Shown here piece after piece: positions 26,191 to 49,645 of a DNA stretch of 64,000 nucleotides. The notes below the pieces were generated by a model, which searched no databases, had not been told where the DNA came from, and was given only the letters and a program-made list of their open reading frames with translations. Numbering within the stretch: the first letter of the stretch is position 1; every line of letters starts with the position of its first letter. Source of the stretch: Patescibacteria group bacterium (GTDB taxonomy: Bacteria > Patescibacteriota > Patescibacteriia > UBA2591 > UBA6264); NCBI GenBank assembly GCA_021735685.1, contig JAIPGN010000001.1, positions 111,669 to 175,668 on the forward strand, written 5' to 3'. The position numbers and the translations under genes were made by a program.

Positions 26191-26201
26191 ATTTTATTAA
26201 A

Positions 26202-26216
26202 AGGGGACAGTCCCCC
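26202..26216. repeat. REP-like palindrome GGGGACAGTCCCCCC, inverted orientation relative to the copies at 1887 and 26994
   Basis: A perfect 6+6 palindrome around a central A/T. It lies in the divergent gap between tsaE(-) and the RAYT gene(+). A second hairpin CCTGACtgcttGTCAGG is adjacent. Confidence 0.5.
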
Positions 26217-26314
26217 CTGACTGCTTGTCAGGATGCTACTCCAATAGTATAATATAAGGCAGAAAATACGATTTGGCGAAAAATCAGCAAAAAATATTTT
26301 TTAGAATTTATTTT

Positions 26315-26908
26315 ATGCCAAGAAAAGCTCGTAAATATATTGATTACCGAGAAACAATTTATCACGTTGTTTGCCGTGGCAATAATCAAAAGAAAATTTT
26401 TTCAGGAGTTCGAGATTATAAAAAATTATTAAGTATTATTAGAGAAACCAAAAAGAAAATGCCTTTTTGGTTTTATTCTTATAGTTTTTTGCCCAATCAT
26501 TTTCATTTATTGATTGAAACTCGCGATTTTTCTCTCTCTAAGATTGTGGGACGAATTAATTTTTTGTACGCAGTTTATTTTAATCACCGTCATCATCGCT
26601 CGGGGCATCTTTTTCAGGACAGGTTTTACAGCAGTGTAATCAACAAAGAGGATTATTTTTGGACCGTTAGCTGTTATATTGACCTAAACCCAGTTCGGGC
26701 CAAAATAGTTATTTTGCCAGAAAATCATCGCTGGGGAAGTTTCAAAATTTATAAAGAAAAGATTATTAAGGATGATTTGATTGACAGAAATAAATTTTTA
26801 TCTTATATTGGAAGAAAAGGCCCAGAAGAATGTCGTCAGGAATATTTAAATTTTGTGCAAGGAAAAATTATCTCTGATGATAAAAAAATTCTTACCTTTC
26901 TTAATTGA
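26315..26908 (+). CDS. IS200/IS605-family Y1 (HuH) transposase-like protein, RAYT-like
   Basis: HuH motif 'HFHLLIE'. The downstream 'YIDLNPVRAKIV' resembles the RAYT 'Y..NPV.AGLV' catalytic-Tyr block. The start was placed at the internal ATG (MPRKARKYIDY...). The track ORF begins 14 codons earlier. Confidence 0.65.
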   Translation: MPRKARKYIDYRETIYHVVCRGNNQKKIFSGVRDYKKLLSIIRETKKKMPFWFYSYSFLPNHFHLLIETRDFSLSKIVGRINFLYAVYFNHRHHRSGHLFQDRFYSSVINKEDYFWTVSCYIDLNPVRAKIVILPENHRWGSFKIYKEKIIKDDLIDRNKFLSYIGRKGPEECRQEYLNFVQGKIISDDKKILTFLN

Positions 26909-27023
26909 TTTTGGAAAACGGGCCATTTCTCGCCAAATTAAAAAAAGAGGCGGGAAATTCGCTTGGGAAGCGGCTGCTGCGTTGCAAAAAGATGGGGACT
27001 GTCCCCGGTAAAAAAATAAAAAT
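26909..27023. repeat. ~100-nt mosaic repeat element (copy B) ending in the palindrome GGGGACTGTCCCC (26994-27006), followed by an A-run
   Basis: Homologous to 1808-1911 (see that feature). It lies directly between the RAYT stop and the korA start. Confidence 0.55.
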
Positions 27024-34221: not shown

Positions 34222-34324
34222 AATTGTTCTTTGAAAATTAAAGAAGAAAAAGCATCTTAAGCTTTAATTATTATATTAAAGCTCACGCCAAAAACATTTA
34301 ATTATTATGAATTAAATGATGAAT

Positions 34325-37360
<3,036 letters not shown>

Positions 37361-37409
37361 CTAATTTATCATTTAGTTCATAATTTATTTTTCCTAAGGA
37401 CAATAGAAT

Positions 37410-37518
37410 TCTGGTGATTCTGCCGGGGAGGAAACACCTGTTCCCATCCCGAACACAGAAGTTAAGCTCCCTAGGGCCGATGGTAGTCTTTAAGGCGAGA
37501 GTAGGTAATCGCCAGAAT
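37410..37518 (+). rRNA. rrf: 5S ribosomal RNA
   Basis: 'TCTGGTGATTCTGCCGGGGAGGAAACACCTGTTCCCATCCCGAACACAGAAGTTAAGC...GAGAGTAGGTAATCGCCAGAA' shows the conserved 5S blocks. Helix I ends pair. Confidence 0.85.
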
Positions 37519-45632: not shown

Positions 45633-45717
45633 TGGTGCCGAAGGTGGGACTTGAACCCACAAGCCTTACGGCACATGGTCCTAAACCATGCGTGTTTACC
45701 AATTTCACCACTTCGGC
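45633..45717 (-). tRNA. tRNA-Leu (anticodon TAG), 85 nt with long variable arm, CCA encoded
   Basis: The reverse complement folds as acceptor GCCGAAG/CTTCGGC, a D-arm, anticodon stem CATGG with loop TTTAGGA, a 14-nt variable arm and T-arm GTGGG-TTCAAGT-CCCAC, then A-CCA. Confidence 0.8.
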
Positions 45718-45791
45718 CCTAAATAAATAATGTGGAGTTTTAACCTCCACATAGTATTGACTTGGGAGTTGAGCTCCTAAGTAATTAAAGA

Positions 45792-45878
45792 TGGTGCCGG
45801 AGGCGGGACTTGAACCCGCACGGACTTGCGTCCACAAGATTTTAAGTCTTGCGTGTCTACCAATTTCACCACCCCGGC
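45792..45878 (-). tRNA. tRNA-Leu (anticodon TAA), 87 nt with long variable arm, CCA encoded
   Basis: The reverse complement is GCCGGGGTGGTGAAATTGGTAGACACGCAAGA-CTTAAAA-TCTTG..GGTTCAAGTCC..CTCCGGC-A-CCA. Its D-arm is almost identical to the neighbouring tRNA-Leu. Confidence 0.8.
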
Positions 45879-45973
45879 TACTTTTTACAACTTTAATTTT
45901 AATCAGATAATCTAAAAATGTCAACATTGTCAGAAATGTTTTTTTTTGCTAAGATAATATTATTAGAGTCTTT

Positions 45974-46046
45974 GCCGGGGTAGCTCAGGGGCCAGAGCAA
46001 TAGTTTTGTAAACTATCGGTCGTGGGTTCGAATCCCACCCCCGGCT
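45974..46046 (+). tRNA. tRNA-Thr (anticodon TGT)
   Basis: GCCGGGG-TA-GCTCAGGGGCCAGAGC-A-ATAGT-TTTGTAA-ACTAT-CGGTC-GTGGGTTCGAATCCCAC-CCCCGGC-T. The cloverleaf fits. CCA is not encoded. Confidence 0.8.
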
Positions 46047-46073
46047 CTCTACTAAAAAATAAAAAATAAATTT

Positions 46074-46229
46074 ATGTCTCAAGCAAATTTGATCAAATTA
46101 GAATGCAGTGAATGTCATCGCATCAATTATTATTCTCAAAAAAATAAGAAGACTAATAAAGATAGATTAGAGCTTAAAAAGTATTGTCGTTGGTGCAAAA
46201 AACACACCTTGCATAAAGAAACTAAATAA
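46074..46229 (+). CDS. rpmG: 50S ribosomal protein L33 (zinc-ribbon form), missed by the ORF track
   Basis: Translates to [51 protein letters not shown] (51 aa). This fits the L33 pattern with CxxC...CxxC. It sits between tRNA-Thr and tRNA-Trp, a common rpmG context. Confidence 0.8.
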
Positions 46230-46241
46230 AAACAAAAAAAA

Positions 46242-46314
46242 GGGGGCGTGGTGAAGTGGTATCATAAGAGTCTCCAAAACTTTTGTCAGAGGTTCGATTC
46301 CTCTCGCCCCTGCC
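46242..46314 (+). tRNA. tRNA-Trp (anticodon CCA)
   Basis: GGGGGCG-TG-GTGAAGTGGTATCAT-AAGAG-TCTCCAAAA-CTTTT..GAGGTTCGATTCCTC-TCGCCCCT-G-CC. The anticodon loop CTCCAAA gives CCA. It closely resembles canonical bacterial tRNA-Trp. Confidence 0.8.
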
Positions 46315-47446: not shown

Positions 47447-48832
47447 ATGAATCTTGATTTTTTAACTAATCAGTATCTTCTTTTATTTTATCTGGAACAA
47501 GGTATTTATTATTTTGTTCGTTTTTTTTTCGGTTATGGAATTTGGATTCTTTTGACCCTTTTTATTTTAAGGATTTTTTGGAAACGTTGGACCAAAAAAA
47601 ACAAAAAAAAATATTTAGCTCAACAAAAATATGTACTTTTGGGTATCATCATGCCAAAGTATAATGAACAGGGACCAGAAACTCTAGAAAGATTTTTTGC
47701 TCACTTGTCAGGCATTAGAGAAAAATTCAGTTGGTGGGCGAAGAAAATTGAAGGAAAAACCCAGCTTAAGATATCTTTAGAAATAGTTAGTTTTGGTGGT
47801 AAGGTGCAATTTTTTATTCACACCCCAGTACAGTTTCAAGATTTAGTAGAATCTGCTATTTATACTTGTTATCCTTTTTTAGAAATTTTTGAGGCGCAGG
47901 AAGATTATGCCGTTAAGACGCAAGAGAAGTTTAATGAAGGAGAGGTAGATATCTGGGGAGCAGATTTGCATTTAGCAGAAAAAAATCCTATCCCTATTAG
48001 CACCTATCTTCAATTTGAACATAAATTAAGCAAAGAGTTAAAAGATCCTTTAACTGATTTATTAGAAATTTTGGGGAGAATGAGGGAAGGAGAAGAAGCT
48101 TGGGTTCAGTATGTAATTAGTCCCATTGATTCAGGTCTAAAAAAAGAGGGAGAGGGCATGATCGCCGATCTTTTGGCTGGCAAAAAGAGCAATAGTGGCA
48201 AAAATAATATTATTGACAAAATTGTTGCTGGATTAATGAAATTGTCCCAAGATGCGGTTGAGTTTATTAAGAATGTTTTTGACTTGCATCCCACCACTGA
48301 CGAATTTGAAGACAAGAAGAAGGGGGATTCGAAAACTTCTTCTGTTGACAAGCGTTTAATTGAAGCTATTCAAAACAAAATAGCAAAAATAGCTTTTCGG
48401 GCTGTAGTCCGCATAGTTTATGTAGCAGAAAGAGAAATTTTCGTCAAAAATAAAGGGTCAGTAAGTTTATTTAGTTCTTTTAATTCTTTTCAATCCATGA
48501 ACCTTAATAGGTTTAAAAAATCTTCTTGGGCTAAGGTTTCCAAGGGTGATTGGAACAAAAACAAGGTTTTAAATTTAAAAAAAGCTAAACTTTTGAAGAC
48601 TTACCAAAAAAGAGACTTTTCCTGGCGGGTGAGAACAGGCTTACCTAAAATAATAGATGACGTTAAGAAGTTTTTGGCTATCTCTGGATCTTCTCCTGAA
48701 GAAAAAACTATTTTAAATATTGAAGAACTCGCAACCCTTTATCATTTTCCAACCGATATTACCAAGTCTTCTGCCATCAGAAAGAGTACTGGCAAAAAAG
48801 CTGAATCGCCAACCGATTTACCAGTAGGTTAA
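47447..48832 (+). CDS. hypothetical protein with N-terminal membrane anchor
   Basis: 461 aa. The N-terminal ~45 aa are hydrophobic (1-2 TM) and the rest is hydrophilic and K/E-rich. No family recognised. Confidence 0.4.
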   Translation: MNLDFLTNQYLLLFYLEQGIYYFVRFFFGYGIWILLTLFILRIFWKRWTKKNKKKYLAQQKYVLLGIIMPKYNEQGPETLERFFAHLSGIREKFSWWAKKIEGKTQLKISLEIVSFGGKVQFFIHTPVQFQDLVESAIYTCYPFLEIFEAQEDYAVKTQEKFNEGEVDIWGADLHLAEKNPIPISTYLQFEHKLSKELKDPLTDLLEILGRMREGEEAWVQYVISPIDSGLKKEGEGMIADLLAGKKSNSGKNNIIDKIVAGLMKLSQDAVEFIKNVFDLHPTTDEFEDKKKGDSKTSSVDKRLIEAIQNKIAKIAFRAVVRIVYVAEREIFVKNKGSVSLFSSFNSFQSMNLNRFKKSSWAKVSKGDWNKNKVLNLKKAKLLKTYQKRDFSWRVRTGLPKIIDDVKKFLAISGSSPEEKTILNIEELATLYHFPTDITKSSAIRKSTGKKAESPTDLPVG

Positions 48833-48973
48833 GTAGAGTTAAAAAAATGTTAAAAAATTGACATTTTTCAAAAATTACCTCTAAAAACCTTTCCTTGATT
48901 GGTTTTTAGAGAAGCAGTTTTTGGGGTCTGGCCCCATTTGAAAAATTAAAATTTGGTTTGTTTATTTGATTAT

Positions 48974-49645
48974 ATGAAGCTTTATATTGTGGCTACTCCT
49001 TTAGGTAATTTGCAAGATTTGAGTCCTCGTGCTTTGGGGGTTTTTCAAAAAGTTAAATTTTTACTTTGCGAAGATACGAGAAAAACTCGTAAATTATTTT
49101 CCGCTTATCAAATTTCTGCGCCTCGTTTAATTAGTTATCATCAACATTCTAATCCCCAAAAAGTAAAAGAAATTATCCAATTATTGAAAAAGGGAGAAGA
49201 TTTAGCTCTGGTTTCTGATGCTGGGACGCCAGGAATTTCTGACCCCGGTAATAAATTAATTAGCCTGGCTTTAAAAGAAATTAATAATTTAGAGGTGGTT
49301 CCCATTCCCGGACCTTGTGCTCTCATTGCTGCTTTGTCTGTAGCTGGTTTTCCGTCAGATCGTTTTCTTTTCTATGGTTTTCTGCCTCGAAAAAAGGGAA
49401 GAAAGAAAATTTTACAGGAAATTAAAGAAAGTTCTTGGACGATTGTTTTTTATGAATCTGGCTACAGGATCAAAAAAACTCTAGAGGAATTAGAAGAAAT
49501 AGAGATGGAGAAAGATCTTGTGGTGGCCCGAGAGTTAACTAAAAAATTTGAAAGTATTTATCGGGGGTCAATTAAGGAAGTTCAACCCCTTTTAAAAGGA
49601 AAAAATTTAAAGGGAGAATTTACGGTAGTCATTAATAATCAATAA
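48974..49645 (+). CDS. rsmI: 16S rRNA (cytidine1402-2'-O)-methyltransferase RsmI (tetrapyrrole-methylase fold)
   Basis: 'LYIVATPLGNLQDLSPRALGVFQKVKFLLCEDTRKTRKLF' is the RsmI N-terminal signature. The start was placed at the internal ATG (MKLYIV). Confidence 0.8.
   Translation: MKLYIVATPLGNLQDLSPRALGVFQKVKFLLCEDTRKTRKLFSAYQISAPRLISYHQHSNPQKVKEIIQLLKKGEDLALVSDAGTPGISDPGNKLISLALKEINNLEVVPIPGPCALIAALSVAGFPSDRFLFYGFLPRKKGRKKILQEIKESSWTIVFYESGYRIKKTLEELEEIEMEKDLVVARELTKKFESIYRGSIKEVQPLLKGKNLKGEFTVVINNQ

Follow-up and report, generated by a model that had tools for sequence, protein, structure and literature searches.

A probable TIRtron-type locus in Patescibacteria: a predicted Y1/HUH nuclease gene between inverted units that end in a 13-nt palindrome

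A stretch of 64 kb from the genome of a Patescibacteria group bacterium (contig JAIPGN010000001.1; the full stretch, with a GC content of about 35%, is called the window below) contains a gene for a predicted Y1/HUH tyrosine nuclease, a TIRYT-type relative of the RAYT proteins, set between two short inverted repeats. The open reading frame (ORF) lies at 26315 to 26908 on the plus strand, begins with ATG, and encodes 197 amino acids (aa). Its left arm is one unit of about 85 nucleotides (nt) at 26201 to 26285 that is read away from the gene on the minus strand (nhmmer arm profile, E 2.8e-10). This arm holds the palindrome GGGGACAGTCCCC at 26203 to 26215 (no strand) and an inner box at 26270 to 26285, the reverse complement of which is GATTTTTCGCCAAATC. 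The right arm, again one unit, occupies 26915 to 27018 on the plus strand (nhmmer E 4.9e-10), with the box ATTTCTCGCCAAATT at 26925 to 26939 and the palindrome GGGGACTGTCCCC at 26994 to 27006 (no strand). The distance from palindrome to gene is 99 nt upstream and 85 nt downstream. A solo unit at 1809 to 1912 on the plus strand fills the entire spacer between glyS and a peptidase M16 gene (pepM16), with its box, TTTTTTCGCCATTTT, at 1819 to 1833 and its palindrome at 1888 to 1900. The neighbours of the nuclease gene are tsaE and valS on the minus strand and the alpha and beta subunit genes of a 2-oxoacid:ferredoxin oxidoreductase (POR) on the plus strand; none of them is tnpB, in keeping with what had been stated in an earlier first-pass annotation of this DNA.

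The motif GGGGACWGTCCCC occurs in the window at 1888 to 1900, 26203 to 26215, and 26994 to 27006, three times where 0.01 would be expected, and none of 100 shuffles reached three. The central base is A in the upstream flanking palindrome and T in the downstream one, so the two are inverted relative to each other. The first-pass annotation had described these inverted palindromes and a third copy at 1887 to 1900. All three exist, and the flanking pair proved to be a family-wide feature that tracks the protein tree, but the left coordinates were one off (GGGGACAGTCCCCCC is at 26203 to 26217) and the third palindrome starts at 1888, position 1887 being an extra G. The annotation had also seen no IS-type terminal inverted repeats. 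Inverted arms are present, and they share a box, a fixed spacer, and the palindrome: solo unit 1809 to 1912 and right arm 26915 to 27018 are 78% identical across 104 nt, and the reverse-complemented left flank has TTTTCGCCAAAT and GGGGGACTGTCCCC in common with both. In all three GGGGAC-type units of the window the distance from TCGCCA to the palindrome is exactly 58 nt. The palindromes are thus the outer tips of units of about 85 nt, each with an inner box containing TCGCCAAAT, and the gene is bracketed by two inverted unit copies with the boxes facing the gene and the palindromes outermost.

A sigma-70-like promoter match (TTGTCA-17-TATAAT, 11/12) lies inside the left arm at 26225 to 26253 on the plus strand, directed toward the Y1 gene, and is probably the promoter of that gene. 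A second solo unit, at 48852 to 48937 on the plus strand (nhmmer E 4.2e-12), was found by a profile built from many related units; a blastn search for further copies within the window returned A/T-rich noise only. It is intergenic, sitting between ORFs 47447 to 48832 and 48953 to 49645, and brings the solo units of the window to two within 63 kb. Its palindrome is of a different type (GGGGTCTGGCCCC at 48923 to 48935, with one T.G mismatch) and its centre forms a perfect 11-bp hairpin (CTCTAAAAACC/GGTTTTTAGAG). This unit suggests a second, non-cognate unit family, perhaps with a second Y1 gene elsewhere in the genome.

The protein (NCBI entry MCF7906794.1, labelled 'transposase [Patescibacteria group bacterium]') carries the Y1/HUH signature that the first-pass annotation had read from the letters: both PNHFHLLIE and the tyrosine block YIDLNPVRAKIV are present in the ORF. 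The motifs are H62/H64 (NHFH, residues 61 to 64), FQ at 100 to 101 (within HLFQDRF), Y121 within YIDLNP (121 to 126), and a WGS tail where most homologues have WSS. The Pfam model Y1_Tnp scores 55.1 bits (cutoff 23), the NCBIfam RayT model (NF047646) 62.2 bits, under its equivalog cutoff of 80, and the NCBIfam IS200 model 20.9 bits, under its cutoff of 55. Judged by these scores, the protein is nearer to the RAYTs than to IS200 TnpA but a curated member of neither. The sole PDB match of a profile of 49 homologues was E. coli TnpA_REP (4er8, E 6e-6), and in that alignment the family's YIDLN falls on the YIYIN of 4er8. YIYIN reportedly contains the catalytic Tyr115 (Messing et al. 2012). An AlphaFold model of the Y1 protein (pLDDT 87.5) has 4er8 as its top Foldseek match (E 7e-8, TM 0.59/0.69), with the TnpA proteins of IS608, ISDra2, and IS200 behind it at ranks 2 to 30. 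Sequence profile and fold therefore both bear out the first-pass assignment to a RAYT-like protein with a RAYT-like tyrosine motif, distinct from an ordinary IS200/IS605 TnpA.

Across the 49 homologues N61, H62, H64, G97, and H98 are invariant and Y121 is kept in at least 90%, and the active site is under selection. No Pfam helix-turn-helix (HTH) domain (Bac_DnaA_C, HTH_23, HTH_28) was detected at E <= 1 in the window protein, and the model has short helices only and one long helix (170 to 196). Distant homologues of 258 to 328 aa have Bac_DnaA_C or another HTH beside Y1_Tnp. A word-indexed protein search gave 1,277 matches, many labelled 'RayT' or 'transposase' and from Patescibacteria; close homologues in IMG bear the label 'REP element-mobilizing transposase RayT'. 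An exhaustive profile search gave 3,130 clusters (50% identity) at E <= 1e-30 and 47,492 at E <= 1e-3, and many of its top matches are about 315 to 325 aa long, the profile covering only their residues 1 to 190. The coding sequence also contains a 12-pair inverted repeat (GAAACCAAAAAG...CTTTTTGGTTTT, 26444 to 26474) that was flagged as terminator-like and is identical in strain L209; it may be a chance feature of A/T-rich coding DNA.

Related loci (given here by L numbers) were collected by exact protein look-up (four) and by a metagenome scan with protein alignment (80); the 51 with a protein sharing 44% identity or more with the window protein are called close loci. In many Patescibacteria the gene has been conserved along with the box, the spacing, and the palindrome. 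A matching 13-nt GC-rich palindrome is present in both flanks of 41 of the 51 close loci and at one of 1352 pseudo-gene control positions in the same loci. It has 6-bp arms and one central base, and in close loci it is located about 80 to 125 nt upstream and 60 to 108 nt downstream of the gene. When units are stacked without gaps on the palindrome, a conserved box (AAAATCGTGCCAAATTTAAAA) emerges in the same register in left, right, and solo units. The box (consensus across units AAAATCGTGCCAAATTT, about 58 nt from the palindrome) is at the fixed register in 67 of 102 units and no more than 2 nt off in 87 of 102. The two ends of the unit are therefore unlike: one is a gene-proximal box, the other a GC-rich 13-nt palindrome of the form GGGGAC-N-GTCCCC at a distance of about 58 nt. 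In distant homologues of GC-rich bacteria (31 to 33% identical), GGGGTCNGACCCC is found on both sides of the gene, nearer to it.

The palindrome occurs in several types (GGGGAC, GGTGAC, GGGGTC, GGTGCC, GGGGCC, and GGTACC), and each change is mirrored in the other half. Of 106 units, taken as palindromic from the outset, 75 have G-C and 31 T-A at pair 3; at pair 5, A-T is found in 73, T-A in 18, and C-G in 13. There are 65 double-change cells, in contrast to 16.8 after shuffling, and none of 500 shuffles reached 65. These symmetric variants follow the protein phylogeny: the nearest protein neighbour has the same palindrome type in 34 of 45 cases versus 12.7 expected (0 of 2,000 permutations), so that palindrome type tracks the protein tree. 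The centre base, oriented away from the gene, is equal in both arms at 33 of 36 loci. In the 106 units no base within 8 nt of the palindrome, on its left or its right, is conserved, and the comparison with the REP (repetitive extragenic palindrome) consensus that the first-pass annotation had proposed found no adjoining GT[AG]G tag. The sequence GGGGACAGTCCCC also occurs by chance as a terminator-like hairpin between A and T runs in unrelated genomes, at L114 (969 to 1041) and at other loci among L002 to L118; owing to these occurrences the 13-mer alone is not diagnostic outside AT-rich genomes. A scan of genome contigs for box plus palindrome gave chance matches in GC-rich genomes, at least 117 loci, and none of the loci listed was Patescibacteria-like.

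Solo units are sparsely scattered through intergenic DNA and vary from one related genome to the next. The unit profile identified 29 of them in 568 kb (window and close loci), about one per 18 kb. Twenty-two of the 29 are intergenic, although ORFs of 100 aa or more cover 85% of the bases. Outside the gene region there are 14 exact cognate palindromes, versus 9 for six other types combined, and a full unit accompanies most solo palindromes. The spacer between the POR beta gene and tsaD holds a unit in L119 and none in the window, L120, or L121; the junction of tsaE and valS holds one in L119 and L158 and none in the window. One relative, which matches the window at 87.3% identity across 11.8 kb, has no detectable unit in 21 kb. 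In that relative the spacer between glyS and pepM16 measures 66 nt as opposed to 104 in the window, with no unit or palindrome detected there. Exact insertion boundaries or a target-site duplication at this spacer were sought and set aside, the alignment with the relative (87% identical) being ambiguous.

Doublets are rare, the one seen being in L123 (2891 to 2995), where two palindromes stand tail to tail 9 nt apart. The second of these palindromes starts a near-exact copy of the L123 left arm, just upstream of a DNA-alkylation-repair gene. The doublet is possibly a case of an arm donating its promoter.

The gene itself is more stable in position than the solo units. It lies within the same tsaE...POR region in the window, L119, L120, L121, and L158, and strain L209 (96% identity) has it at the identical site with intact arms. 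No second Y1 copy was found within 10 kb on either side in any locus of the candidate phyla radiation (CPR) or in the 64-kb window. Breakpoints of rearrangements fall at the arm ends. Homology between L120 and L121, which are 99.7% identical, sets in 28 nt beyond the left palindrome. L120 (839 to 1693) and L158 (9864 to 10721) share 94% identity across the 858 nt of the arm-gene-arm block, as against 82% for the flanking genes, a contrast that may stem from gene conversion, from an exchange of the block, or from stronger constraint. The block and an adjacent lycopene-cyclase gene appear in swapped order in L158 (9882 to 11471) and L119 (8946 to 10721), with the junctions a few nt from the arm tips. 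In L119, core palindromes also lie between several cassettes of a variable region (9688, 11440).

An arrangement of this kind is known from outside the CPR. Di Nocera and coworkers (2013; BMC Genomics 14:522, PMC3733652) named RAYT-like genes that are associated with inverted repeats rather than GTAG REPs TIRYTs, and the corresponding loci TIRtrons. They described TIRtrons from Proteobacteria, Acidobacteria, and others, not CPR, and reported that many of the repeats have GGGGWSAS and form moderately abundant dispersed families of singles, dimers, and groups. The locus described here resembles TIRtrons in that a Y1 gene lies between inverted repeats at similar distances on both sides with no GTAG tag, and in that the opening 8 nt of GGGGACAGTCCCC or GGGGTCAGACCCC correspond to GGGGWSAS. 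Each palindrome of the window, read on one of its strands, gives GGGGACAG, which fits this consensus; so does the variant GGGGTCAG, while the GGTGAC and GGTGCC variants of other loci do not. The locus differs in that the motif forms one half of a perfect palindrome of 13 nt whose variants are symmetric, in having a defined unit of about 85 nt with a second conserved box at fixed spacing, and in that the two arms of a locus share little beyond box and palindrome. The class thus matches the known TIRYT/TIRtron type, as a short, HTH-less Patescibacteria clade. What is new is that GGGGWSAS makes up one half of a palindrome of 13 nt whose type varies with the protein, that box, spacer, and palindrome form a fixed unit, that solo units occur extragenically with presence/absence polymorphism, and that breakpoints lie at arm ends.

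Most TIRYTs belong to subclass 2.1 of Quentin et al. 2018 (PMC6006769), which is characterized by NH[YF]H, FQ, Y[IV]HLNP/YIELNP, an SS tail, and a C-terminal HTH (their Table 1) and near whose genes Quentin and coworkers found no REP-like sequences. The same branch is Group 1 of Bertels et al. 2017 (PMC5581495), in which flanking 16-mers occur about 12 times per replicon. NHFH, FQ, YIDLNP, and the tail motif (WSS in most homologues) place the window protein close to this branch, as do its low copy number and only modestly repeated flanks. The protein differs from the branch in its length (197 aa compared with a median of 238) and in having no detectable distal HTH, and a conserved flanking palindrome is obvious in this Patescibacteria clade, unlike in subclass 2.1 as described.

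The REP/BIME system of E. coli TnpA_REP (YafM) and the REPIN-RAYT system of Pseudomonas are the subject of work by Nunvar (2010), Bertels and Rainey (2011), Ton-Hoang (2012), and Messing (2012). They share with the present locus the nearest solved structure (PDB 4er8, by sequence and fold), a single-copy and largely vertical gene, inverted palindromic repeats that also occur extragenically, and the pairing of repeat and protein types. They differ from it in using a GT[AG]G guide, in having WQ where the present family has FQ (the GTAG-reading RAYTs have WQ), and in a repeat that is a 20- to 40-nt hairpin rather than an 85-nt element with unlike ends, a tiny palindrome, few copies, and rare doublets. 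With the IS200/IS605 elements (IS608, ISDra2) the locus has the HUH/Y1 fold in common and presumably the same chemistry on single-stranded hairpin DNA. The window protein lacks their DH[VI]H and Y..NQ motifs and scores 20.9 against a cutoff of 55 with the IS200 model. Those elements also differ in having direct left-end and right-end hairpins, often a tnpB, and multiple copies, where the present locus has inverted ends, a single copy, and no tnpB. Literature searches found no RAYT, REPIN, or TIRYT system described in CPR/Patescibacteria, which agrees with the first-pass annotation's remark that the arrangement had not been characterized in CPR-like genomes. The term TIRYT itself turned up in just two papers.

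The explanation that best fits the locus, and is probably correct, is that of a TIRtron: a single-copy TIRYT-type Y1/HUH gene flanked by two inverted cognate units of about 85 nt, with a product predicted to be a catalytically intact single-strand DNA nuclease/transposase whose closest class is subclass 2.1 of Quentin and coworkers, or Group 1 of Bertels and coworkers, within the RAYT superfamily. By analogy with the biochemistry of TnpA_REP and of IS608/ISDra2 TnpA, the enzyme would recognize the palindrome when, in transiently single-stranded DNA, it folds into a small hairpin with a 5-bp stem and a 3-nt loop, and would cut and rejoin nearby through an active site formed by Tyr121 and His62-His64. 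Cutting and rejoining of this kind may copy or move units and may occasionally leave breakpoints at unit ends. Over short time scales the gene would keep one chromosomal site, in this clade between tsaE and the oxidoreductase operon.

Several points weigh against this explanation. Binding, cleavage, and mobilization are inferences for every TIRYT. The predicted hairpin is weak, folding into a 5-bp stem with a 3-nt loop. The symmetric variation would be equally expected of a dyad-symmetric duplex site bound by a dimer and does not by itself prove a hairpin; moreover, the sequences behind the covariation counts were preselected as palindromic, so the percentage of paired positions is given by construction, although this does not hold for the two-sided changes. 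Within one locus, left and right arms are 47% identical compared with 40% between loci (37.5% in the window). Since this is barely above background, the arms share an architecture and not long sequence identity, and long, highly similar terminal inverted repeats are ruled out. Solo-unit orientation relative to GC skew is 12:11, which is no bias, unlike the strand-specific insertion of the IS608 type, and strand-specific insertion relative to replication was rejected on this count. Finally, no C-terminal HTH was detected, a feature that Quentin and coworkers give for their subclass 2.1 TIRYT examples.

The whole arm-gene-arm block of about 0.85 kb could instead be an autonomous IS-like element that transposes as one, the arms being its terminal inverted repeats and the solo units its remnants or miniatures. 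The block does behave as a discrete homology segment ending at the arm tips, as seen in its excess identity over the flanks in L120 and L158, in the order swap with the lycopene-cyclase gene between L158 and L119, and in the start of L120/L121 homology just outside the left palindrome. In addition, among the RAYT groups other than IS200, Bertels and coworkers found that Group 1 resembles an IS most, with duplicates at 6% and plasmid-borne genes at 1.2% (PMC5581495). An IS-like element is nonetheless unlikely, given that the gene is single copy in the 64 kb and within 10 kb on either side in all CPR loci, that it remains between tsaE and the POR operon though the proteins are only 67 to 70% identical, and that strain L209 has it at the identical site. 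Solo single units also far exceed anything like a two-armed miniature, and no target-site duplication is evident at the window locus. The Y1 transposases known so far (IS608/ISDra2) have asymmetric hairpin ends on one strand and not inverted repeats, and the inverted-repeat ends found here are unlike theirs.

If the units were promoters, terminators, or operators of the host, the Y1 protein might be a domesticated binder of the duplex palindrome that moves no DNA. Several features have this flavour: the three GGGGAC palindromes of the window stand 10 to 32 nt upstream of a start codon reading away from the unit, the arm consensus resembles TTGCCA-N17-TATAA with promoter-like matches in both directions in the left arm, two palindromes on the minus strand are followed by T runs as in terminators, and a dyad-symmetric site predicts the same symmetric variation. 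The relation to neighbouring genes is inconsistent, however, with 8 co-directional starts and 18 convergent ends outward of left arms and 8 co-directional starts and 5 convergent ends at solo units. Outward promoters were rejected for this lack of gene-orientation support across loci and because the right arm and the solo unit of the window have no -10 match; plain intrinsic terminators were rejected because T runs trail the hairpins only on the strand opposite the neighbouring genes. The HUH and tyrosine residues are conserved family-wide, which would be needless for a pure binding protein, and close relatives show gain or loss of units at orthologous sites, all of which makes a purely regulatory role distinctly improbable. 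Least probable of all is a canonical REP/REPIN-RAYT system, in which short tagged REP hairpins are spread mainly as inverted doublets by a RAYT of the Group 2/3 type. The closeness to E. coli TnpA_REP, the IMG label of close homologues, and the inverted palindromes that flank the gene and recur extragenically point that way, and membership in the RAYT superfamily is the part of the first-pass proposal of a REPIN/RAYT-type locus that stood. The canonical form is already contradicted on tag and unit architecture: in 106 units neither GT[AG]G nor any other conserved sequence stands next to the palindrome, and the unit of about 85 nt has unlike ends where a REP has 20 to 40 nt. The protein also has FQ instead of WQ and scores 62.2 with the RayT model (cutoff 80). 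Only a single doublet (L123) was seen, and unit density in the 568 kb of window and close loci is about one per 18 kb.

Long hairpins occupy the centre of some units (21 bp in L151, 11 bp at 48852), but the mean z-score is only -0.6, RNAalifold gave only the terminal palindrome as consensus structure, and Rfam had no match at unit sites; a conserved central hairpin or structured RNA was rejected on these grounds.

Beyond the TIRtron explanation, a tentative and rather doubtful extension is that the Patescibacteria maintain a long-lived, vertically inherited nuclease-plus-repeat partnership with a two-ended substrate of about 85 nt, whose enzyme breaks unit ends and so reshuffles adjacent cassettes. 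Reshuffling is suggested by the block-gene swap between L158 and L119 and by the palindromes between the L119 cassettes. Such a partnership would be similar to REPIN-RAYT, acting on another substrate, and if real it would be a source of local genome plasticity in streamlined genomes poor in mobile elements. That streamlined CPR genomes retain a repeat-plus-nuclease pair bears on how their intergenic DNA and gene order change. No TIRYT or subclass 2.1 protein has been studied experimentally. Within the RAYT superfamily the branch is among the largest. For study, its Patescibacteria clade is an unusually clean system, with a protein of about 200 aa, a 13-nt palindrome with protein-tracking variants, a box at fixed spacing, and small genomes, and specificity-swap experiments can be designed straight from the sequences. 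The gain is incremental, since the architecture and GGGGWSAS were published in 2013.

Elsewhere in the window are a 23S rRNA gene (34325 to 37365; the match is 3,041 nt long and the model has 2,925 positions) and a 5S rRNA gene (37410 to 37517), with no 16S gene anywhere in the 64 kb. The 23S gene is bracketed by a 33-nt inverted repeat (34304 to 34336 and 37352 to 37384, 91% complementary) that is probably a processing stem. A tRNA cluster at 45633 to 46314 comprises two tRNA-Leu genes (tag, taa) on the minus strand followed by tRNA-Thr and tRNA-Trp on the plus strand, and the two tRNA-Leu genes partly duplicate one another (repeat families D16 and D18).

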